Virus record (IMG/VR): IMGVR_UViG_3300010401_000039
Location: 1-59,731 of that record
Reading direction: 5' to 3' (one strand)
Origin: a virus
Taxonomy: Duplodnaviria > Caudoviricetes
Length of the DNA: 59,731 nucleotides
Below the pieces are notes generated by a model that searched no databases, had not been told where the DNA came from, and saw nothing but the letters and a program-made list of their open reading frames with translations. Of the stretch, positions 24,249 to 33,260 are shown one piece after another (within the stretch, counting starts at the first letter, position 1; each line of letters opens with the position of its first letter). A program made the position numbers and the translations under genes.

Positions 24249-26567
24249 TTACTCCTTGTTCTTGGTCGCGCTGGCCTTCTTCGCCGCTGCCTTGGCTTCC
24301 GCTTCCGCCTTGCGCTCGATGGCGCGCACTTCGGCTGCCGTCTTGGCGTGCTGCGCTGCCGTCTCCGCCACGCCCTCCATGCCCGCAACGAACACGTCGG
24401 CACGCGTCTTTTCCATCTCGTGCGCCTGCTTCTGGCGGAACGCAGCTTCCTTTTGTGCGAGCTTCTGCTGGTCGCTGACCTGTTTGGCCTGCACCTTTGC
24501 TTGCGTGGTCGCCGCAATCGACGCCACCTTGGCCATCGTCTCCGGGTCTTGGTGCCCGTTCTGTTGCGCTGCCATTTCTTGTTGCCGTTGCGCGAACGCC
24601 TTAACCTGATTACCCAGCTTGCCCAAGAAATCGCGATACTGTTTCACGCGCTGCGCCTCGCTCTCGTCCTGCTCCAGCAAATCAATGTGCTGCGTCACGT
24701 AAGCTGCGGCATTCGTTATCCCGACCACGTCCTGCGGCATGCCCACGCCGCCGCTCTGCTCAATCTGCTGCACCTTCATGTCCATCATTCGTAGCAGCGT
24801 TTCGATAACTTCGCGGTGCGAGTCGCCTTCCTTGACTGGCATCGGCACGCCGGTCATCAGCGTCCCCCACGCAAGCGCCGCATCGAACACCGTGTCTGTG
24901 ATCTTGTTCGGCTTGATTGGCGCAAGCTCATCCGCTTCCGCCGCGCTGTCCGTCACCGCCAGCACCAACTTATGCAGCGTCCGTTGTTGCGCCGACGGCT
25001 CCATAAACTGCCGCACGCTCATCAGTTTGTCCGCGCCGGCCAACTCAAGTTGCTTGCTGCCGCCGCCCATGACGGTCTCGGCGCGTATCTCCCAGCGGTC
25101 CGAGTCCAACCACTTCTCAAGCACGCCCGCCTCGCGGCACCGCTTCTGGAACGCCTTCGCGTCCGCGTTGTGCGTGTCCTTCAGGCACAGGCGCCGACAA
25201 ATCTCGCGATACTCAAACTCCGCCTGTATGTACGCATTATTGAGCAGCGAACTGAGCAACGCGCTGGTCTGCGCCAAGAGCGCTTGCACCTCGAACTTGG
25301 TGCGCTCCTTCTCCGTCCCGCTGTCGATGTCCTGTGTGTAGCTGCTCGCGCTCTCGCCCATGTATTGCTTCAGGTTGCTGAACAGCATTTGGCTTAGCTG
25401 CGGGTCAAACTGATAACGGTCCTCGCGCTTCACAAATCCAATGCCATCGGGCAGCAGGCCGTAACGAAGGCCGAAGTGGATTTTATCGACGGCTGCGCGA
25501 TCCGCCGGGTCTTGCACTCTGAGCAGTAACAGAAAGTCTTCGTGAACCTTCGACACGAAGCGGTTCATCGTCATGTCCTGTATCTGGCATAGGTCAAATA
25601 GCAGGAATCCAAGCGACCGAATGCTGTAGAACATGAACGGCGCTTTGTGATTCGAGTCGCCGACTTGCATGTGCAAAATCTTGTCGAGCGAGTCTGTCAC
25701 CGGGCGCTTGCTCTCGTACAAAAACTCGTCGAGTTCGTTTACGGTGCCGTAGCTGTTGGTGAATTCGCGGTCCAACACGATTTGCAGGTTCCACTCGCCG
25801 GTCTCGTCATCTTGCGAGTAGAAGTCGAAGCACCATATCTTGGGCACGGCATCGGACTGCCAGTAAACGCAGTTTTGCTTGTAAAGCTCTGCGGCCTTTT
25901 CGGGATAGTTTACCCAATCGTACGCTTGGTCCGATGTGTCGTCCTTCTTTATGGCTTGCAGAACGCGCCTCACCATCTTGACGTTCCATCCCGGATCAAT
26001 GTTTTCGTCCTTGGCAATCGTCTTGCGGTAAAGTTCATACGGCGTCATTCCGCGACGCACCGAGAAGTGGGAAATCCCGTTCAAGCTAACGGGCGTATCC
26101 GTGGGGCACAGCCAATCTTCAATCGCGATGAAGTCAGGAATCAGTTGGTCCTTGTCGAACCACATCTTGATGGCTACGCCGTTGAGCATCACTGACGCGC
26201 CCGTCTCACGAATCAAGCTCCAGTACTCTCGCGAGCGCTTCAATGGTCGATTCGCCTCCTTGGTAATGATTTGCCCCCATTCTAGCGCTTTATCCACCGG
26301 GGCATCCTCAAGGGAAACGTTAAAGTAGTGCGCCGTCTTGCCAAAGGCGTTCTCGTATTGCCTTCGGGCCGTCGCGAGCAGATTTGAGCAGGTCTTGGTC
26401 GAAAAGTTGACATCCAGTTTGTTCTCCGCCATCTGCGCGTCAGTAAAAGGCGGCAACCCGTTCGCTTGATTTTGGATGAGCACGCGGTTACGCGCCCGAA
26501 TCTCGTCCGCGAGCCGCATGCTTTGAATCACCTCGCCAACTTTGGTGGCTGTTGATGTGTCGCTCAT
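24249..26567 (-). CDS. Portal protein (P22/podovirus-like with long helical C-terminus)
   Basis: About 772 aa, in the same operon as terminase, with a Q/A/K-rich coiled-coil tail. Confidence 0.75.
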   Translation of the reverse strand: MSDTSTATKVGEVIQSMRLADEIRARNRVLIQNQANGLPPFTDAQMAENKLDVNFSTKTCSNLLATARRQYENAFGKTAHYFNVSLEDAPVDKALEWGQIITKEANRPLKRSREYWSLIRETGASVMLNGVAIKMWFDKDQLIPDFIAIEDWLCPTDTPVSLNGISHFSVRRGMTPYELYRKTIAKDENIDPGWNVKMVRRVLQAIKKDDTSDQAYDWVNYPEKAAELYKQNCVYWQSDAVPKIWCFDFYSQDDETGEWNLQIVLDREFTNSYGTVNELDEFLYESKRPVTDSLDKILHMQVGDSNHKAPFMFYSIRSLGFLLFDLCQIQDMTMNRFVSKVHEDFLLLLRVQDPADRAAVDKIHFGLRYGLLPDGIGFVKREDRYQFDPQLSQMLFSNLKQYMGESASSYTQDIDSGTEKERTKFEVQALLAQTSALLSSLLNNAYIQAEFEYREICRRLCLKDTHNADAKAFQKRCREAGVLEKWLDSDRWEIRAETVMGGGSKQLELAGADKLMSVRQFMEPSAQQRTLHKLVLAVTDSAAEADELAPIKPNKITDTVFDAALAWGTLMTGVPMPVKEGDSHREVIETLLRMMDMKVQQIEQSGGVGMPQDVVGITNAAAYVTQHIDLLEQDESEAQRVKQYRDFLGKLGNQVKAFAQRQQEMAAQQNGHQDPETMAKVASIAATTQAKVQAKQVSDQQKLAQKEAAFRQKQAHEMEKTRADVFVAGMEGVAETAAQHAKTAAEVRAIERKAEAEAKAAAKKASATKNKE

Positions 26568-27214
26568 AGATTCAAGAGTTGTTGTGCTCCACGGTAAGCC
26601 GCCCACTCAATTAGCGATTTGGCACCTTTGCTAAGATTGCAAGGTCCGCAGGAAACGCACAGATTTTCGACTGCGTGCAGTCCGCCCTTAGAAAGCGCGA
26701 TGATGTGGTCGAAGTGAATGGTGCGTGTAGAAACTCTCTCTTGGCAGTAGTAGCAGGTTGCAAGGGGCTTTGCCTTTATGCTCCGCACGAAGGCTATAAT
26801 GCCTTGCATGTTGATTGTGGCCGCTTTCTTTAACGCGTTTCGCTTTTGCACGCGGGCGAAACTCTCTGCTTTGTGCCCTTTGTAATAGGCAACGCCCTGC
26901 TCACGCAGCTTTTCTCGGTTGGCTTCTCTGTAAACGATGCCTCGCGATTGCCTCTTTTGTTTGTGCTGCTCTAGTTTGTGAGGGTCGGCTTTTATTACGT
27001 CACGCGCCAAAGCTGCCTGCTGTTTTGCATGCTCCTGGTTTGCCTTGTAATATGCCGCGCCTCGTCGAAGTCTGCGCTCCCTGTTTTTTGTGTGGTATTC
27101 GGCTTGGTAACGGCGTTGCTTCTCGATGACTTCGGCTTTCTGCGCCTCGGTCATGGATTGCCAGCGACGGCGACGATACTCCATCTTTCTTTGGCTCTGC
27201 TGCGTGGCGCTCAT
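26564..27214 (-). CDS. HNH endonuclease
   Basis: CYYC...HFDHIIALSKGGLHAVENLCVSCGPCNLSKG. Basic helical N-terminus. Confidence 0.9.
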   Translation of the reverse strand: MSATQQSQRKMEYRRRRWQSMTEAQKAEVIEKQRRYQAEYHTKNRERRLRRGAAYYKANQEHAKQQAALARDVIKADPHKLEQHKQKRQSRGIVYREANREKLREQGVAYYKGHKAESFARVQKRNALKKAATINMQGIIAFVRSIKAKPLATCYYCQERVSTRTIHFDHIIALSKGGLHAVENLCVSCGPCNLSKGAKSLIEWAAYRGAQQLLNL

Positions 27215-28323
27215 ATCACAGCCATCGGCTCACGCTGTTTGGTCGCCTGTTGCTGCGCCTTGCGCTTCGCCTCCTCCTGGTATTCCTTGCTGCGTTGTGC
27301 GGCGGATTTGCGGCGTTCGGCGAGTGTTGCGTCGCCGCCTTTGAAGTTCGGGTTCGCCTCGCCGGGCTTGCCCACGACCGCTTCGCCTTCCTGCGTCGGT
27401 GCAGGCTCCGTTGCCGTCGGCAACGCCTTAGGTGCTTCGATCAGCCCCGCTTCCAGCGCCTTGTCCAGCACGTATGCGCTCGCTCCGGTTGGCTTCAGCG
27501 CCTCTACCGCCAGCGCCTTCCTGTGCTCCAAGCCGACGCGCCACATCGTCAGAAAGTCCTCCGTCTCTTTCACCCGGTGGAAGATTGCCGCCTCGCGCTT
27601 GATGAAGTCCAACGTCACCACGTTCGCCGGGTCCGCCTCCGTCCGCAGCGTCTTGAACACAGGCGGCGTGCTGTAAGCCGTCCCCCAATGGCTCTGTATC
27701 AGCGGCGTGTGATGCGCCCGCGGCGTCAGCGTGTCCGCGAAGGTCATATCCCACGCGCCCACTGCGGGTGCCTCGCGCTGTCCCGGCCGGCGCACCGGAC
27801 TCGTCGGCCCGGTGAACTTCGCTTCCTGCCATCGCTTGCTGAGCAGTCCGAACAAATCCTGCGGATAAACCGCGATGCCGCTCACGTATCGCTTTGGCAA
27901 ACCTTCCGGCGCGTCTGGGTTGTCAATCACATGCCCCATCAGCGGCCGCGGGCATAGGCGATACGCGCCCGCCAAATCATCCAGCCAGCCCGCTCGCAGC
28001 GGCACGCAATCCGGCTCCACCCACAGCCACGGCAACTTGTAGCCCTCGTAAATCTGCCGCGCCACCGCCCGAAACATCAGGTTCGCTGCCAGTGGCCAGC
28101 CCTTCGCGCCTGTCTGTATAATCATTGCCCGCACGCTATGGAATGCCGGTCGCGCCACATCCAGAAGCGCCTTCACGCGCTCCTGCGGGATGCCCGCGTC
28201 CGCGCCCACCAACAGGCTGTGCTCGCGCATTGGGCCAAGTTCTACCATCCACTTCATCAGCGTCTCGGCCTGTTCGATGTCGCCTGCGTGCGTGGGCAGC
28301 GCGACTATTAGGGGTATGCTCAT
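27211..28323 (-). CDS. Glycosyltransferase-like (GT-A fold) protein
   Basis: IVALP...GWPLAANLMF...WLWVEPDCVPLRAGWLDDL...SGIAVYP...WD...IFHRVK. Confidence 0.55.
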   Translation of the reverse strand: MSIPLIVALPTHAGDIEQAETLMKWMVELGPMREHSLLVGADAGIPQERVKALLDVARPAFHSVRAMIIQTGAKGWPLAANLMFRAVARQIYEGYKLPWLWVEPDCVPLRAGWLDDLAGAYRLCPRPLMGHVIDNPDAPEGLPKRYVSGIAVYPQDLFGLLSKRWQEAKFTGPTSPVRRPGQREAPAVGAWDMTFADTLTPRAHHTPLIQSHWGTAYSTPPVFKTLRTEADPANVVTLDFIKREAAIFHRVKETEDFLTMWRVGLEHRKALAVEALKPTGASAYVLDKALEAGLIEAPKALPTATEPAPTQEGEAVVGKPGEANPNFKGGDATLAERRKSAAQRSKEYQEEAKRKAQQQATKQREPMAVI

Positions 28324-28826
28324 GGAGTTTGTTGGGGTTTGTACAGACACAAGGATGCGTTGGTAAGAGCGAACTCTCCGAAATGTTTGACAACTTCAGC
28401 ATCGTAACGCTTCGCGGCTTCTTCTGCTGTGTCGAAGTAACCGAAAACTATTTCTTGGCGACTAATTTGAATTCGAGCGCGCCATTTCTTCATACCTTTG
28501 TGCCAAGAAACTCCTTTGAAGCCAGATGTGCTTTTTGACGATAGTTTCTGATGTCGCACGTTTTCGGCGTTAGTCGCCAAGCTGAGATTGGATTTTTGGT
28601 TGTTTAATCCGTTGTGATCCGCGTGATGAACTTGCAATCCTTTTGGCGCGCCCATTATCAAACGGTGCATCAATACAAATCGCCGTTGCCCGGCTCTTCC
28701 GGGGTTAGTTGAAGCGTAAAGCCCCCCATTAGATTTATGGGTGTGCCATTTGTATTCTGAGATCAACGGCAAATCTTCGTCGTCAACCAAAGCAACTTGA
28801 TTTTTTGTCAGCGGGATTTCTTTCAT
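28320..28826 (-). CDS. HNH-AP2 endonuclease (paralogue of 2230..2724)
   Basis: MKEIPLTKNQVALVD...MHRLIM...VHHADHNGLNNQKSNL...SGFKGVSW...EEAAKRYD. AT-rich. Confidence 0.9.
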   Translation of the reverse strand: MKEIPLTKNQVALVDDEDLPLISEYKWHTHKSNGGLYASTNPGRAGQRRFVLMHRLIMGAPKGLQVHHADHNGLNNQKSNLSLATNAENVRHQKLSSKSTSGFKGVSWHKGMKKWRARIQISRQEIVFGYFDTAEEAAKRYDAEVVKHFGEFALTNASLCLYKPQQTP

Positions 28827-29526: not shown

Positions 29527-32364
29527 TCAAGCCGCAGTCTTGAGGCGCATGCTGGCGATGAGCTTCCTGTGCCGGTCGTTGAGTTCTTCCAGCCAGCTTT
29601 TGCCGCCCCCCTCGATGAACTTGTCAGCGCCCAGTTTGGCTATCTGCAAACCGCGTTGCCGCGCCCCTTCCACGGCCGTCGCCAGCCAGTCCGCCTCGTC
29701 CGGCGACCTGCCGATGCGCTGCTTGGTTTTGTCCTTCGGCTCCACGTCGCGCTTGTTGCCGCCGACAAAGATGAACTCCCGCATGAAGAACTCCTGGGCG
29801 ACCGACTCCGGCAACTCCCGCAACTGTTCGCTCTCCACTAGCCAGCGCACCGCGAACCAGAACTCGCTCACCCGCTTCTGGTATTCCTCGTCGGCGCGCT
29901 TCAACCTGCGCTGCTGCGTATGCTGATCCACAACGAACAGGTCCAGACGCACCGGCCTAGCGCTTGGCCTGCCTCCGAACTCCACCGGCACTGGAATTAC
30001 ATGCCCGAACACCCGCGCAAACGCTGCGCCCAGCGTCCCGCGCCCCGTCGAGTCATAGAACACGTTCTCGACCGGAATGCCCTCACGCAGGCACTCGTCG
30101 CGCACATGCTCGGCAATTTCGTCCTCCGGCTCCGCACCCCGCTTCATGCCAATCTTGATAACGTGCGGCTTCTCGACGCGCACAATCTGCTTGCCGTCCA
30201 CGTCGTCGCCGAACTCAATCCAGCCCCCGACGCACCTATCGCCTCCGTACGCCGCGTCCACGGCATAAATCTTCGTCCGGTTCACGCCCTTCCATGTCGC
30301 CTTCTCAAACGCCTTGTGAATTGTGCAAAGCTGCTTCGTCAAGACTCGCTGCGAGTCTTCGCCCGGCCGCATGATGCCCAAGCACATCGCGTTGAACTCC
30401 TCGCTATGCGGCCCGTAGAACCGCAGCGTGCTGTCAATGCGCTCTTGGTCGATCAGGAACGGGTAGTGCCGCCCGTCGCCCTCGAAGTTCGGTGAGTCTG
30501 TCCCGACGAAGTTGATGCACTTGCCCTTCGCGTACTTCGTCGCCCAAATCGTCGTCTTGGTGATGTCGCGCACGCTGCCCCAGCCCAGTTCCGGTTCGCA
30601 CGACTGGCCCATCGGCGAGTGCTCCCCGTTCACCGGGTTCGCGATTGGGATGAAGAAGAAGCGCTCGTTTTTGTCCAAGTTCGACGTTGCCCGCAAATAC
30701 GAAATATGCATGAGGCTGCATTCATCCGCCACGAGGAATACCCACTTGTTCTTGATGCCGACGAACGGTCCGATGCCCACCCAGTGCTCTCCCTTGTAGC
30801 AGTTGTGGACGATTACACCGTTGACTGAGTAGCTTGGATGTCCTGCAACTTCGAGATTGTGGACTCGATAGCCTCCTTGACCCGCGTCGTATCGTTCATC
30901 GCCTTCTTGTTTGAGAATCTCAACACGGTCCACCCAAGCTCCCTGAGTCGGCCGTCGCGGAATTTGTCCTTCGTTGCCACACTCGGAATCCGATGAATGC
31001 CGCCGTCGATTTCCACGCCTAACTTCAACGTTGGAAAAGCCACGTCCACCTTGTACCCGTGTCGTCTGCCGTCGGCCTTCAACAAGCCGCTCCTGACGTA
31101 AAGGTTCCACGTTGCGTCGGGAAACAGCTTCCAGATGATTAGTTCCTCTGGCGTCGGCATCCTGCCCTTGCGATGGTGCCGCTTGGAAATCCACTTCAGC
31201 CTGCAAGATAGACCGCAGAACCGCGTCCTGTCCTTCGCGGGCGATTCGCGCAGCGAAACAAAAGCCTTCCCACACCGCTGACAAGGCATCGTCTCCGGGC
31301 GATTGCGGCATTGCACTGAGCAGAAGTCGCGGTTGTGATGCACAGCTTTCATTGGTTGCCCGCAATTCTTGCACGCCTTCGACACTTTCTTGATGCAATC
31401 TTTGTGTGCGGCTGCCCATCGTCCCGCGCAATCCGTACCGCAGAAACGACCGGATCGGGCGTTGCTCTTGCGCCACGGGCGAAACGGCTTCTGGCAATGA
31501 GCGCAATTTTTGGGTGGTAGGAAAATGCGGCACTCGCTTGAGCAGTACTTTCGGTTGGGATAGCCCGGTCCCAAGTTCCCCTTGCAAGAGGCGCAGCGTT
31601 TCATGCGCCGAGAATACCCTGTCATAAGTCTCCAAGTCACGTACTTTCACCCATCCTCGTTGCGTAAAAAACGGATGTTCCTCTGTGCAATCTATCATTC
31701 GGCCATCCGACAAGTGAACTCGGAATGCTCGGTCAACTATTCTTGTGTGCGTCTCGGTAATGGTTCCGATGCCAGAGGCATTGAAAACCTTGTCTCCAAC
31801 GCGCAATGTTTCGATGGGCTTTGGACCGCTCGGAGTGTCAACCAAAGTGCCCGGTAAAAAACATGCAATCCCAATCACGCCGTTTCTGAAATCACGCGTG
31901 TCGCCGTCCTCGCTTCGGTCCGTGATGATGCACCGCTTATAGTCCAGCGCCACGCCCGGCAAATCGTCCCACCGCGCCTTGGCCTGTTTGTGCAGCTTCT
32001 TCACTTCGCCCAATATGCCGAGGTCCAATTTCTGCACCGTCGTCGTCGTCAGCAGTATCGTCGTCTCCTCCGGGTAAACGTAGTAATGCGACAGGACGAA
32101 CTTGCTCGCGTAATACGTCTTGCCGCAGCTGCCCGGTCCGAGCAGCCCTACCATGCCGCGCTTGCGAAACTCGACGCAATCCGTGAACTCGCGCAGCGCC
32201 AAGTCGCTCCACTTATTGTGCTCGTCCTCCCACAACAGCGAGTGCAACGCCCGATAATGCGTAAACAGGTCTTTGCCCTGCCGGATGCACCATTTCTCGA
32301 TGTCAATGGCGCGCGTGCCCGCTTTCCAATGATGCGAGTACCGCTCGAAGGTCGCCGTTGCCAT
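29527..32364 (-). CDS. terL: Terminase large subunit with intein
   Basis: Walker A GPGSCGKT, Walker B FLVADEC, nuclease AVDAAYGGD...YDSTGRG...GRSPDEAD. Confidence 0.9.
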   Translation of the reverse strand: MATATFERYSHHWKAGTRAIDIEKWCIRQGKDLFTHYRALHSLLWEDEHNKWSDLALREFTDCVEFRKRGMVGLLGPGSCGKTYYASKFVLSHYYVYPEETTILLTTTTVQKLDLGILGEVKKLHKQAKARWDDLPGVALDYKRCIITDRSEDGDTRDFRNGVIGIACFLPGTLVDTPSGPKPIETLRVGDKVFNASGIGTITETHTRIVDRAFRVHLSDGRMIDCTEEHPFFTQRGWVKVRDLETYDRVFSAHETLRLLQGELGTGLSQPKVLLKRVPHFPTTQKLRSLPEAVSPVAQEQRPIRSFLRYGLRGTMGSRTQRLHQESVEGVQELRATNESCASQPRLLLSAMPQSPGDDALSAVWEGFCFAARIAREGQDAVLRSILQAEVDFQAAPSQGQDADARGTNHLEAVSRRNVEPLRQERLVEGRRQTTRVQGGRGFSNVEVRRGNRRRHSSDSECGNEGQIPRRPTQGAWVDRVEILKQEGDERYDAGQGGYRVHNLEVAGHPSYSVNGVIVHNCYKGEHWVGIGPFVGIKNKWVFLVADECSLMHISYLRATSNLDKNERFFFIPIANPVNGEHSPMGQSCEPELGWGSVRDITKTTIWATKYAKGKCINFVGTDSPNFEGDGRHYPFLIDQERIDSTLRFYGPHSEEFNAMCLGIMRPGEDSQRVLTKQLCTIHKAFEKATWKGVNRTKIYAVDAAYGGDRCVGGWIEFGDDVDGKQIVRVEKPHVIKIGMKRGAEPEDEIAEHVRDECLREGIPVENVFYDSTGRGTLGAAFARVFGHVIPVPVEFGGRPSARPVRLDLFVVDQHTQQRRLKRADEEYQKRVSEFWFAVRWLVESEQLRELPESVAQEFFMREFIFVGGNKRDVEPKDKTKQRIGRSPDEADWLATAVEGARQRGLQIAKLGADKFIEGGGKSWLEELNDRHRKLIASMRLKTAA
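30802..31863 (-). mobile_element. Intein (354 aa) in terminase
   Basis: Block A CFLPGTLV, block B CTEEHPF, block F/G VHNLEVAGHPSYSVNGVIVHN, +1 residue Cys. Confidence 0.92.
30813..31604 (-). CDS. Zn-finger + DUF559/Vsr-like endonuclease nested out of frame inside the intein
   Basis: Four CxxC...(F/Y)CxxxC repeats, then TPEE..W...YKVDVAF...LGVEIDGGIH...DKFRDGRLRELGWTVLRF. Confidence 0.85.
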   Translation of the reverse strand: MKRCASCKGNLGPGYPNRKYCSSECRIFLPPKNCAHCQKPFRPWRKSNARSGRFCGTDCAGRWAAAHKDCIKKVSKACKNCGQPMKAVHHNRDFCSVQCRNRPETMPCQRCGKAFVSLRESPAKDRTRFCGLSCRLKWISKRHHRKGRMPTPEELIIWKLFPDATWNLYVRSGLLKADGRRHGYKVDVAFPTLKLGVEIDGGIHRIPSVATKDKFRDGRLRELGWTVLRFSNKKAMNDTTRVKEAIESTISKLQDIQATQSTV

Positions 32365-32432
32365 TGACGGAACCTACGCGAGGGCGCATAAGGTAGGCAA
32401 TACCCGAACGGCGGGCCAACGAAAGGCACTTT

Positions 32433-33260
32433 ATGAGCTTCGGATTACAGGACTGCTGCCAAGTATGTCCAACTCCAGAGACGGTCTCGATACCGGGTTT
32501 GGAAGGGCCGCCGGGCACCGACGGCACCAACGGTACCAACGGCGTCAGCGCCTTCACCTTCACCACTGCCGACTTCGTTGTGCCACCTGCGGACGGTGCG
32601 ACACCCGTAACTGTCGAAGTGGAAAACACAAGTTGGATGGCTGACGGGGAGCCAATCTTCATTCCAGGCGGTCTGTTCTTTCTCGTTGACGCGATTATCG
32701 ACAGCACCCATTTCAGCGTGGTCAGTCCTGATTGGGAAAGCAACACGCACGCTGGCGATACGATTTCTGCTGGTGAAAAGGTTTCCCCATCTGGTTGGCA
32801 GCCCGCCGTCACTCCACTGCCCGCTATCAACGCCGTCGTTAAGTACGCCAGCGGCACCGGACACGTCATTACTGGTGCGGCGTTTGCCGAAGTCACGTTT
32901 GGAACCAGTGGCGCTGAGGAAATAACGCTGACAACCGCAGGTGCGTGGATGCTCTATGCGCGAGCACGCGTCGATTACACGGGTAGCACATTTGCTGCAT
33001 CGCGCACCGTCAGCCTAAAGTTGCACAGGCAGAACAACACGCCAGGCGACGTGGCTAACGCTGCCACTGCGTTCAAGACTCGCGTCGTCACCGCTGAAAC
33101 ATCTACGGCCATCGACTTGGTTGTGCCGCCTGTGATGTATTCCACGGCTGGCGTGACCGACATCATTGAAATGATGGTGGCGATTGACACGGACCCATCT
33201 GGCGGCACGACGATTACCATTGTCGAGTGCGAGATTGTGGCCGTGTTCCTTCACGCTTGA
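32433..33260 (+). CDS. Virion protein with short collagen-like (GXY) segment
   Basis: DCCQVC N-terminus, GLEGPPGTDGTNGTNG, beta-rich C-terminus. Confidence 0.7.
   Translation: MSFGLQDCCQVCPTPETVSIPGLEGPPGTDGTNGTNGVSAFTFTTADFVVPPADGATPVTVEVENTSWMADGEPIFIPGGLFFLVDAIIDSTHFSVVSPDWESNTHAGDTISAGEKVSPSGWQPAVTPLPAINAVVKYASGTGHVITGAAFAEVTFGTSGAEEITLTTAGAWMLYARARVDYTGSTFAASRTVSLKLHRQNNTPGDVANAATAFKTRVVTAETSTAIDLVVPPVMYSTAGVTDIIEMMVAIDTDPSGGTTITIVECEIVAVFLHA

Follow-up and report, generated by a model that had tools for sequence, protein, structure and literature searches.

The window, by which we mean the whole stretch of 59,731 nucleotides analysed here (IMG/VR record IMGVR_UViG_3300010401_000039, a virus of the Caudoviricetes), carries on its minus strand a long ORF interrupted by a class-1 intein, and inside the intein lies a second gene, read from the same strand in the +1 frame (Table 1). 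The exteins and the intein add up to the whole ORF (167 + 354 + 424 = 945), and the spliced host product would therefore have 591 aa; intein-free homologues of the host protein measure 590–620 aa. The sequence of the host protein shows a Walker A motif (GPGSCGKT) and a Walker B-like one (LVADE), and the +1 Cys of the intein is C168 of the host family, where it is nearly invariant. The earlier note had called the gene a terminase. The intein does sit in a P-loop ATPase gene, but that the host protein is a phage terminase large subunit is weakly supported, the sequence leads being weak Terminase_6N matches in 5/34 homologues (best E 8.7e-4) and an Atlas cluster, at rank 20, with Terminase_6C on 13% of its members. 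Pfam and PHROG searches with an intein-less homologue gave no match, nor did tblastn over 50,697 phage records, and nothing significant was found in the PDB with either the single sequence or a 34-sequence profile. Two free-standing HNH genes lie directly downstream.

Table 1. Features of the intein-interrupted gene and of the gene nested in it (window coordinates).
Feature	Position	Strand	Description
Host ORF	29527..32364	-	945 aa; P-loop ATPase (putative terminase large subunit), intein-interrupted; from ORF list
N-extein	31864..32364	-	167 aa, C-terminal end ...RNGVIGIA
C-extein	29530..30801	-	424 aa, begins CYKGEHW
Class-1 intein	30802..31863	-	354 aa; Cys1 ... His-Asn, then +1 Cys; Pfam, AlphaFold2, Foldseek
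N-terminal splicing module	31606..31863	-	86 codons, host frame only; block A CFLPGTLV, block B CTEEH
Host-frame read-through linker	30940..31605	-	222 codons, stop-free, unconserved, predicted mostly disordered
C-terminal splicing module	30802..30939	-	46 codons; AWVDRVEI strand, blocks F and G, ...VHN
Nested open span	30813..31640	-	ATG at 31604 gives 263 aa; from ORF list
Nested +1-frame nuclease gene	30813..31604	-	263 aa + TAA; homing-type nuclease
Presumed nuclease start ATG	31602..31604	-	in-frame alternatives ATG 31625, GTG 31640
Zinc-finger part	31194..31604	-	nuclease residues 1-137; four CxxC...FCSxxC (FCS/MYM-like) repeats
DUF559/Vsr-like domain	30891..31157	-	nuclease residues 150-238; D187, E198, D200, H204, D213, GWTVLRF
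Dual-coding stretch	30813..30939	-	nuclease residues 223-263 + stop, over intein residues 309-350
Presumed co-conversion tract and homing site	30691..31894	-	intein + 31 nt upstream, 111 nt downstream

Splicing modules and nested nuclease

The motifs of a class-1 intein are all present (CFLPGTLV; CTEEH, with the block B TxxH; VIVHN|C) in what correspond to blocks A, B, F and G. Among 57 host-frame inteins C1 and N354 never vary and H63 and H353 hardly do, and the Pfam matches of the host frame are Hint_2 (3.8e-8), PT-HINT and Intein_splicing. In the AlphaFold2 model, residues 1–90 and 310–354 reach pLDDT 93–98; the C-terminal module, which is conserved across loci, is modelled at 94–98 with strands at 309–316, 331–339, 344–347 and 350–353. 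Foldseek returned 35 PDB matches at E <= 0.001, the best being the gp41-1 intein (E 3.5e-7), and the 49 matches listed comprise inteins, gp41-1, DnaB and RecA inteins among them, bacterial intein-like (BIL) domains and the hedgehog autoprocessing domain. The reading of a complete 354-aa Cys...His-Asn/Cys intein thus stands, with a confident HINT fold. We infer that it splices itself out, since its motifs are intact and the host protein must function.

The middle of the intein is of another kind. Pfam gave no match to it in the host frame, and its pLDDT is mostly below 55; the linker is not uniformly disordered, since residues 190–225 reach 72–80. It had been described as stop-free, motif-less and Q/R/A-rich, and the first two hold; the composition of the 222 residues is rather R/L/Q/G-rich (13.5% R, 9.9% L, 9.0% Q, 9.0% G, 7.7% A).

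The +1 ORF begins directly after the N-terminal module and stops within the C-terminal splicing region, as first noticed from the letters; its stop lies 5 codons short of the intein end. The nuclease with four zinc fingers that had been read in it is conserved and well-folding (mean pLDDT 90.6). Pfam DUF559 (PF04480) matches at E 1.1e-10 and 41.8 bits against a cut-off of 20.6, over profile positions 43–107 of 109. The family profile aligns with the DUF559 structure 3hrl at E 1e-16 (chain residues 4–103 of 104) and with 3r3p, I-Bth0305I, at E 0.0029 over 57 residues; with Foldseek the same two structures are matched at target TM 0.66 and 0.63, with probability 1.0 and whole-model E of 0.02–0.04. 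Among 72 nuclease sequences D187, D200, G201, H204, D213 and W225 do not vary and E198 hardly does, and we take the conserved acidic and His residues to be catalytic. The zinc-finger part, with C34, C37 and C59 invariant and C55 near-invariant, gives weak profile matches to FCS and MYM fingers, and PF06467 is precomputed on a homologue (P0002); the repeats are presumed from sequence to be the DNA-recognition part. The stretch corresponding to the EDxHD motif, so named by Gosselin et al. (bioRxiv 10.1101/2025.01.02.630785), reads E-I-D-G-G-I-H in the nested nuclease.

Conservation and constraint in two frames

Relatives were gathered with patterns built on the nuclease's own conserved motifs, and 80 viral loci (the best of 163 relatives) and 80 loci of cellular genomes and MAGs (of 146) were kept. 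The nuclease is nested in the frame relation of the window in 77/80 of these best viral loci, and nested also in 30/80 genome loci. Two of the remaining three viral loci are truncated by contig ends; a single relative, L052, has its nuclease in frame with the intein, and it is placed amid nested forms on the nuclease tree. The nuclease is free-standing in 43 of the 80 genome loci and lies in 7 more in an open frame without intein motifs. Nested and free-standing forms separate on the tree, with 3–4 changes needed as against 41 in shuffles. Members occur in soil and marine phages, prophages and cellular helicase genes, and the host genes of nuclease and intein include the ATPase of the window, SF2 and SNF2 helicases, RecQ and a methylase-helicase. 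Two cultured phages carry the nested nuclease, Corynebacterium phage phi673 (gp43) and Vibrio phage CP-T1 (gp10); at both loci the annotation gives the helicase CDS alone, and the nuclease gene is missed. The nested arrangement is thus a large, conserved and mostly unannotated family.

The arrangement could be an artefact, made by two compensating indels or by a chance open frame, or an in-frame nuclease domain could be restored to the host polypeptide by two frameshifts. The points in favour are the oddity of the arrangement and the in-frame relative L052. An assembly error is refuted, and compensating sequencing errors are excluded, by the 77 viral loci alike and by a contig of an independent metagenome run that crosses the nested stretch with 0 gaps; a sequencing frameshift is no explanation, as had been argued earlier from the open host frame. 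A chance open frame is excluded by synonymous-codon shuffles of 68 unique nested nuclease ORFs, since the host frame contains 0 stops across all 68/68 where a mean of 10.5 is expected, and just 44/20,400 shuffles are stop-free. The third frame, as control, has 16.3 stops observed versus 14.9 expected. The linker is therefore kept stop-free by selection, which would be needless if ribosomes left the host frame, as two frameshifts require. Moreover, blocks F and G share their bases with the last 42 codons of the nuclease, and one polypeptide could therefore not contain both. We regard these readings together as having a negligible probability.

Selection was compared in both frames, as the earlier note had advised. 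Between L002, the twin of the window, and L003, the nuclease frame of the intein middle has an omega of 0.078 and the host frame one of 1.57; in the exteins host-frame omega is 0.05–0.08. In the middle of the intein, the nuclease frame is under purifying selection and the host frame is not. The end of the nuclease gene is different. There LGWTVLRF (nuclease residues 223–230) and AWVDRVEI (intein residues 309–316) are written on shared bases 30915–30939, which confirms the dual coding first seen there, and mean pS over 28 pairs falls to 0.46 (host) and 0.42 (nuclease) in the overlap, compared with 0.73–0.81 in single-coding parts. Both frames are constrained over the last ~42 nuclease codons and the C-terminal splicing module. 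Between the GW motif and the end of the intein the median distance is 45 host codons (range 38–53, n=58), and the codon choice at GWTVLRF is skewed (GGG in 53/60, TTG/TTA in 57/60, AGA/AGG in 51/60); the in-frame relative L052 has GGC, CTG and CGC instead at its motif of this type.

Translation and mobility of the nuclease

We consider it highly probable that a mobile class-1 intein occupies the phage P-loop ATPase gene and that its homing nuclease is a separate, same-strand +1 gene. Ribosomes in the host frame would read through the 86-aa N-terminal module, the 222-aa linker and the 46-aa C-terminal module, the linker being merely an off-frame reading of the nuclease gene, unconserved and largely disordered. 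The two modules would fold into a HINT domain and splice out to leave the 591-aa host protein. The nuclease would be made separately from ATG 31604 and would presumably cut intein-less alleles near ...GIIGIA|CYKG..., and repair would then copy in the element plus some flanking extein. Internal initiation, nuclease cleavage and homing of the element are what we infer from the comparisons below.

To judge by the sequences, the nuclease most likely begins at its own ATG 31604. The N-terminal module before it has exactly 86 codons in 8/8 close loci, and the start is kept at one position in all of them (ATG in 7, GTG in 1). Among 65 unique loci an ATG lies no more than 12 codons from the first CxxC in 50, an imperfectly controlled count as the host frame also has a nearby ATG in 29/65, and in most it stands 2–7 codons ahead of the first zinc finger. 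Alternatively, a programmed +1 frameshift past the N-terminal module could produce a fusion of N-extein, N-terminal module and nuclease. Such a route would account for a Shine-Dalgarno-like sequence that is only weak in the window clade, where a clear one is absent before ATG 31604 and the nearest AGGG and GGAG lie at about -16 and -27, and it would suit a nuclease frame that is open for 12 codons upstream of the ATG, from GTG 31640. The route of translation is likewise a question for the hidden nuclease of ShiLan (Arsenault et al. 2025, PMC11855218). Frameshifting, however, needs no start codon at a fixed position, and in four loci (L009, L010, L017 and L018) the ATG is the only start candidate within the open span. 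Aligned start regions share no slippery motif by eye, and no conserved RNA structure, promoter-like site or terminator was found around the start. Independent translation is favoured because the start codon is conserved, and we judge a frameshift improbable. Internal initiation within a translated ORF is expected to be inefficient.

The proposed homing agrees with the distribution of the intein, which is absent in 16/21 evaluable close relatives, where the site reads ...RNGIIGIA|CYKG. A near-identical intein-less allele is 99.6% identical to the window in the C-extein, with 5 differences that all fall within 111 nt of the junction; in the N-extein there are 10 differences in the final 31 nt and 0 in the next 274 nt. 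Such clustering is as expected from homing with co-conversion, and lends sequence-based support to the nuclease-driven homing that had been suggested, though precise intein loss plus local divergence could in principle leave the same pattern.

Could the nested ORF be a decaying, inactive relic of a free-standing endonuclease gene, in an intein that is inherited only vertically? Decay as the fate of such ORFs has been raised by Gosselin et al. (bioRxiv 10.1101/2025.01.02.630785), and some members look damaged: L036 retains an open span of only 104 aa, and the host ORF of L010 ends early. Decay does not agree with the low omega of the nuclease frame, the invariant D187, D200, G201, H204 and D213, the confident nuclease model, an ORF intact in 68 unique loci, or alleles so nearly identical that differ in the intein and at its junction, and we hold it to be very improbable. 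To an even lesser degree do we credit a nuclease that serves the phage, for instance by degrading DNA of competing phages or of the host, with its place in the intein incidental. DUF559 is a family without assigned function, its free-standing copies are common in bacteria (the 43 genome loci and the 7 more), and the two HNH genes adjoin downstream. Nevertheless, the nuclease accompanies the intein across unrelated host genes, nested and free-standing forms are separate on the tree, and it is around the insertion site that intein-less alleles differ.

Implications and comparison with known systems

The textbook intein is a single polypeptide that both splices and homes. In this lineage, which is large, splicing and homing appear divisible between two overlapping genes as the normal state. 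The 21 bases shared by the GWTVLRF strand and the HINT strand (R/W)VD(S/R)VE(I/V) recur in unrelated host genes at ~100 loci, which belong to phages, to bacteria of many phyla and to an archaeal MAG. It is possible, as a tentative proposal, that the overlap is an old, fixed-register overprint that binds the endonuclease to splicing and slows its decay, and that in-frame forms may derive from nested ones. The 3′ end of the endonuclease gene could then neither decay nor be deleted, because splicing of an essential protein would be lost. If so, the overprint would slow the homing cycle of endonuclease decay, mini-intein and loss, and would explain why the nested form is a family rule, though published surveys call such architectures rare; internal initiation would tie the nuclease dose inversely to translation of the host gene. 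The position of L052 amid nested forms is a hint that intein endonucleases of the canonical in-frame kind can develop from nested ones.

The family also offers a clear natural case of overlapping genes, in which synonymous choice holds a second frame open for more than 200 codons by the rule that no codon ends in T before AAN, AGN or GAN. The nuclease gene has been overlooked in deposited genomes, and the host-frame linker would pass for a domain of unknown function. For tools, compact zinc-finger-guided nucleases with long target sites are suggested. Phage phi673 on Corynebacterium glutamicum is a cultured and harmless system in which the translation of the nuclease becomes testable. For evolution, the family parallels the fractured genes of Dassa et al. 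in a contiguous form, and it is a test bed for the entry of endonucleases into inteins and their move into frame.

The claim that an out-of-frame endonuclease in an intein is new was too strong, since papers already describe intein endonuclease genes that lie out of frame or antisense, as well as Vsr-like endonucleases of split inteins; the general architecture is in print (Gorbalenya 1998, Dassa 2009, Gosselin 2025, Phillips 2026), the idea being traced to Gorbalenya 1998 as cited in Phillips, DeSimone and Gogarten (bioRxiv 10.64898/2026.09.14.751524). A sense-strand +1 DUF559 gene over blocks F and G was not found in the literature searched.

Dassa et al. 2009 (PMC2677866) described fractured genes with split inteins and a free-standing Vsr-like or GIY-YIG gene between the halves. 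The window resembles these in several ways. Their inteins lie in phage genes for DNA metabolism and terminase; at the endonuclease insertion point stands a Vsr-type gene on the same strand, which has a start of its own and whose 3′ end runs into the coding sequence of the C-terminal intein part, with an overlap of 6–69 bp in 15 of their loci; gp41-1, the best structural match of the window intein, is among their inteins. Their genes have a stop after the N-terminal half, a non-coding spacer of 27–51 bases and a separate start for the C-terminal part, whereas in the window the host frame is unbroken, the intein contiguous and the nuclease gene fully overlapped, with an overlap of ~126 nt with the C-terminal module. 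A fractured gene with a split intein is refuted by the continuous host frame in the window and in the 77 viral loci. The window nuclease also fits DUF559 (3hrl) far better than 3r3p, which belongs to the family of Dassa et al.

Gosselin, Arsenault and Gogarten (bioRxiv 10.1101/2025.01.02.630785) reported non-canonical actinobacteriophage inteins, proposed that these arose when a free-standing endonuclease gene invaded, and argued for continuing transfer. Their VSR-like endonucleases are antisense and their same-strand case is endonuclease VII-like in frame 3, while the window has a sense-strand DUF559 gene in +1 that overlaps blocks F and G and belongs to a family where nesting is the rule. 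Phillips et al. described a cyanobacterial dnaX intein with an out-of-frame LAGLIDADG endonuclease. Here too the endonuclease ORF overlaps a contiguous intein, the overlap has a low dN/dS for the endonuclease frame and a high one for the host frame, and the distribution is sporadic with intein-free alleles; the differences are the LAGLIDADG nuclease, the +2 frame and a host gene on a bacterial chromosome. The fixed-register overlap with splicing blocks marks the window family and is not reported in the passages of Phillips et al. drawn on here. The features by which both groups recognise the out-of-frame form are all found in the window: an ORF in another frame, a contiguous intein, a stop-free host frame and purifying selection in the endonuclease frame only.

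In the ShiLan element (Arsenault et al. 2025, PMC11855218) a phage DNA methylase gene contains an HNH endonuclease that is read out of frame. There too the host frame runs without a stop through an insertion whose endonuclease gene is concealed in a different frame, but the element has no splicing domain, and what is inserted therefore stays part of the host protein. I-Bth0305I (PDB 3r3p; Taylor et al. 2011, PMC3239194), an EDxHD or Vsr-like nuclease of a recA group I intron, is distant from the window nuclease in both profile and structural comparison and is intron-encoded; it shares with it the Vsr-like catalytic fold and a homing role, putative in the window, and is the only related nuclease with demonstrated activity.

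Anatomy and conservation of the nested gene

The intein matches Pfam Hint_2 (3.8e-8), PT-HINT and Intein_splicing in the host frame, and its middle has no Pfam match in that frame. The ORF nested in it, which contains four CxxC...FCSxxC repeats, matches DUF559 in Pfam (PF04480, 1.1e-10, 41.8 bits vs a cut-off of 20.6). The coordinates and lengths in the earlier note are all right, and its 591-aa spliced product agrees with 945 - 354.

Features of the host gene, its intein and the neighbouring genes in the window
Feature	Coordinates	Strand	Description
Host ORF	32364 to 29527	minus	945 aa
Intein	30802-31863	minus	host residues 168-521; starts CFLPGTLV, has CTEEH, ends VIVHN then Cys
Nested nuclease ORF	ATG 31604 to TAA 30813	minus	263 aa; one base off the host frame; already open from GTG 31640
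First downstream HNH gene	28320-28826	minus	free-standing
Second downstream HNH gene	26564-27214	minus	free-standing
Divergent neighbour ORF	32433-33260	plus	opens with a short collagen-like run, GPPGTDGTNGTNG

A protein search returned 7 relatives of the nested protein, five of them full-length at 42-54% identity, and zinc ligands and nuclease residues are retained in these relatives. Scanning of viral contigs confirmed 163 relatives, and the best 80 loci were kept. The nuclease ORF lies within a much longer open frame in 77 of these 80 and is always +1 to that frame; two of the exceptions, L011 and L039, end at contig edges, and in the third, L052, the nuclease is in frame. Around the nuclease stop, the long frame of nearly all loci reads (R/W)VD(S/R)VE(I/V)L...VYNLEVEGHPSYSVNG.LVHN followed by C at the junction, and both boundaries could be recognised by pattern in 61 unique inteins.

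The nested arrangement is neither a sequencing error nor a chance open frame. When the synonymous codons of 68 unique nuclease ORFs were shuffled (L052, L011 and L039 excluded, identical sequences counted once), a mean of 10.5 stops was expected in the host frame and none was observed in 68 of 68. Only 44 of 20,400 shuffles were stop-free, 41 of them from the 104-aa ORF of L036 and 3 from L019. The third frame held 16.3 stops vs 14.9 expected in the same shuffles. Compensating indels, the artefact considered in the earlier note, are answered by a contig of run X2, from another sample and another study, which covers 30700-31950 with 4 substitutions and 0 gaps; the arrangement is thus no assembly error, and it is common to 77 of the 80 best viral loci. 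Run X1 is possibly the source sample and is not counted as independent.

A 796-nt contig of run X3 equals window 30709-30976 exactly and then continues with 528 nt unlike the sequence below 30709 (plus strand), departing from the window 93 nt into the C-extein; it may represent the same intein in another extein background. At L010:3121-5010, the host ORF stops about 200 nt past the intein, while that of the close relative L009 runs on, and the alignment has a 1-nt gap there. The break may mark a host gene that has shifted frame and is possibly dead, or an error of assembly.

Two proteins encoded by overlapping frames

Substitutions in the two frames were compared between L002, the near-twin of the window, and L003. 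In the exteins, where the nuclease frame is not coding, omega (dN/dS) of the host frame is 0.05-0.08. In the 222-codon middle of the intein, omega is 1.57 in the host frame vs 0.078 in the nuclease frame, the latter with a pS (synonymous differences) of 0.73. The middle carries 114, 50 and 32 differences at host-codon positions 1, 2 and 3, that is, mainly at position 1, which is position 3 of the nuclease codon. The dN/dS calculation in both frames proposed in the earlier note thus reveals purifying selection on the nuclease frame of the middle and not on the host frame. Averaged over the 28 pairs that 8 loci form, pS is 0.79 in the N-extein, 0.73 in the N-terminal module, 0.81 in the nuclease middle and 0.78 in the C-extein. 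Taken together, omega by frame and pS identify the middle as a nuclease gene that needs only to be free of stops in the host frame. Owing to the geometry of the frames, keeping the host frame open should cost little by our reasoning, as a stop arises only where a T at the end of a nuclease codon meets a next codon that begins with AA, AG or GA.

The last ~42 nuclease codons are truly dual-coding. In this terminal overlap, mean pS over the 28 pairs is 0.46 in the host frame and 0.42 in the nuclease frame, and pN (nonsynonymous differences) is the lowest among all parts.

A hidden nucleotide-level signal in the N-terminal module was also entertained and dropped: the pS of 0.14 is specific to the L002/L003 pair, the 28-pair mean being 0.73, and the low value is probably that of a recombination mosaic. 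Window 31606-31863 compared with L003:3742-3999 gives this 0.14 for the module, against 0.57-0.66 for the exteins and 0.73 for the nuclease middle, and this likeness between the window clade and L003 points to a mosaic intein produced by recombination.

The overlap keeps a fixed register. (The counts of start codons, boundaries, register and ATG exclude L052, L011 and L039 together with L007, L033 and L036, which are cut or very short.) From Cys1 to the nuclease start there are exactly 86 codons in all 8 close loci, the start being ATG in 7 and GTG in 1; among 64 unique loci the spacing has a median of 86 and a range of 64-105. At the other end, 3-23 codons (median 8) separate the nuclease stop from the intein end, and the GW motif is 38-53 host codons (median 45) ahead of it. 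The codons of the nuclease segment G-W-T-V-L-R-F are strongly biased in nested genes (GGG in 53 of 60, TTG or TTA in 57 of 60, AGA or AGG in 51 of 60), and its bases read one base earlier give (R/W)VD(S/R)VE(I/V). The in-frame relative L052 has GGC, CTG and CGC at those codons, and the shifted reading would be WLDGAALF.

Both products are predicted to fold. In the AlphaFold model of the nuclease (72-sequence alignment), pLDDT averages 90.6 and every segment is at 50 or above. The profile of the nuclease family hits 3hrl, a DUF559 structure, at 1e-16 and 3r3p, the structure of the homing endonuclease I-Bth0305I, at 0.0029, with weak matches to FCS- and MYM-type zinc fingers; in Foldseek 3hrl and 3r3p are likewise on top with probability 1.0, although the multidomain model scores no better than E 0.02-0.04. 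The intein model (57 host-frame sequences) reaches pLDDT 93-98 at residues 1-90 and 310-354, and in between mostly 39-54, but 72-80 around 190-225. Foldseek gave 35 PDB matches to it at E <= 0.001, the best being the gp41-1 intein (3.5e-7), and the matches listed are inteins, bacterial intein-like domains and the hedgehog autoprocessing domain. AWVDRVEI forms strand 309-316 of the intein model and TVLRFS strand 226-231 of the nuclease model; as modelled, the same bases encode two beta strands of two proteins.

Proposed expression and homing, and the host protein

Most loci have a start codon 1-7 codons ahead of the first zinc finger. An ATG lies within 12 codons of that finger in 50 of 65 unique loci, most commonly at a distance of 3 codons; the third frame has such an ATG in 3 of 65 and the host frame in 29. 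Many distant loci carry a GGAG-like sequence at Shine-Dalgarno distance, encoded by host Lys-Gly-Asp codons; the window clade has no such sequence at that distance. No promoter-like or terminator-like sites were found in 30600-32500 (0 and 0 vs 0.7 and 2.2 in shuffles) for the promoter types scanned, and RNAalifold on 10 loci found no conserved RNA structure at the nuclease start (4 pairs, none covarying, -1.65 kcal/mol). Among the sequencing runs listed as containing the sequence there was no RNA run, which does not bear on expression. Internal initiation is the favoured route by which the nuclease would be made. Synthesis as a +1 frameshift fusion, the other route named in the earlier note, is ranked below it and appears improbable. 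At the sequence level, the observation made there holds up, and so does the proposed mechanism, in which an intein would splice and a separately produced nuclease would drive homing.

The intein is patchily distributed. Searching with the C-extein recovered 25 loci closely related to the host gene, of which 4 fall short of the junction; among the other 21, 16 are without intein and five (L082, L085, L086, L007 and L103) bear it, L007 (contig end) and L103 (offset match) having been scored by eye from intein blocks in their tails. Of the best 120 relatives of the host protein in a broader protein search, 8 have the length expected with an intein. Across the 1272-nt C-extein, L083, which has no intein, is 99.6% identical to the window's twin, and the 5 differences are all confined to the 111 nt nearest the junction. 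On the upstream side, 10 differences crowd into the 31 nt next to the junction, and the 274 nt before these have none. Intein-less alleles read ATC-ATC-GGC-ATC-GCG (with GGG in L083, L084, L102 and L093-L099, and GCA in L095-L099). In two clades, the intein-bearing alleles have GTG in common at the Val/Ile codon, and three or four more nearby synonymous positions set them apart from the intein-less ones. Co-conversion in the course of homing would produce just such differences close to the junction.

Two free-standing HNH endonuclease genes lie a short way downstream of the host gene, one with HNH_3 and AP2 (PHROG 99, 4.4e-38) and the other with HNH_5/HNH; the first is in a low-GC patch (0.46-0.47 vs ~0.6 around). 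The window phage seems heavily invaded by mobile nucleases.

The name terminase, given to the host protein in the earlier note, is a weak one at the sequence level. Walker A and B motifs are seen, 5 of 34 homologues give weak Terminase_6N matches (best E 8.7e-4), and the rank-20 cluster of the ESM Atlas, of which 13% of members have Terminase_6C, is a weak lead. On the other side, for the intein-less homologue neither Pfam nor PHROG gives a match, nor does PDB by sequence or profile, and tblastn finds none in phage records. The divergent neighbour ORF matches neither Pfam nor PHROG.

Range of the family and published precedents

Host genes at other loci encode SF2 helicases (ResIII, Helicase_C), SNF2 proteins, a helicase-methylase and a RecQ-like protein with several inteins. 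The last, a helicase of 1645 aa at L078:2104-7038, has Hom_end and LAGLIDADG_3 matches beside the nested-DUF559 intein.

Among genomes (one per species; 80 of 146 relatives), the nested form is found at 30 of 80 loci, in Chloroflexota, Firmicutes, Planctomycetota, Verrucomicrobiota, Patescibacteria, a Woesearchaeota MAG and others. At the other 50, the DUF559 gene is short and free-standing, and most of these loci are alphaproteobacterial. Seven of these (L127, L148, L156, L168, L175, L177 and L196) were among 37 loci flagged as nested and were re-sorted by eye, being from high-GC genomes with the other frame open and lacking intein motifs. On a tree of the catalytic domain, the nested and free-standing labels need 3-4 changes vs 41 in shuffles; the tree was built on 94 columns by a quick method and is poorly resolved, with 65 of 138 inner branches open. 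L131, from a Spirochaetaceae MAG, was scored free-standing with the other frame open for just 37 aa and groups with nested forms; a broken intein may have left it behind.

L052:2654-5761 (plus strand) is the only relative with an in-frame DUF559 nuclease, which lies inside the intein LLADE↓CLPY...VHN↓CQD (arrows, junctions) of a 1036-aa frame. The frame has a P-loop (GTGKT) and an LLADE box and looks helicase-like by eye. L052 is without zinc fingers and has a separate C-terminal splicing strand after the nuclease. The tree places it among nested forms on an unstarred branch without strong support, which is a hint only.

In deposited phage genomes, nuclease matches lie under CDSs annotated as helicase only (45 records). 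Corynebacterium phage phi673 gp43 (L197) and Vibrio phage CP-T1 gp10 (L198) have a +1 nested ORF, no host-frame stop and the intein boundaries DE↓CF...VHN↓CHH, the helicase being the sole CDS annotated there. At L199:2001-2672, Mycobacterium phage Malithi has a weak nuclease match (23.6% identity, E 8e-4) antisense to gp54, a 'hypothetical protein' between methyltransferase CDSs; this may be one of the Gogarten group's antisense VSR-like or hidden-nuclease cases.

Inteins with endonuclease genes out of frame or antisense have been published before. The out-of-frame idea goes back to Gorbalenya 1998, as cited by the preprints of Gosselin 2025 and Phillips 2026. Antisense LAGLIDADG, antisense VSR-like and frame-3 endonuclease VII-like genes are described in actinophage inteins, terminase inteins included (Gosselin et al. 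2025, 10.1101/2025.01.02.630785), and a +2-frame LAGLIDADG gene in a dnaX intein (Phillips et al. 2026, 10.64898/2026.09.14.751524). Vsr-like genes in split inteins overlap the C-terminal half by 6-69 bp (Dassa et al. 2009, PMC2677866), and an out-of-frame HNH gene occurs within a methylase gene (Arsenault et al. 2025, PMC11855218). No report of a sense-strand +1 DUF559 gene over blocks F and G, or of its abundance, was found in the open literature covered, supplements aside. The novelty suggested in the earlier note is therefore narrowed: the general architecture is in print, and the sense-strand +1 DUF559 variant and its extent appear new. The in-frame Vsr-type endonuclease of L052 is absent from the endonuclease types listed in the available part of Gosselin et al. 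2025. The dnaX intein of Phillips et al. 2026 exhibits the same contrast in dN/dS between frames as the window family.
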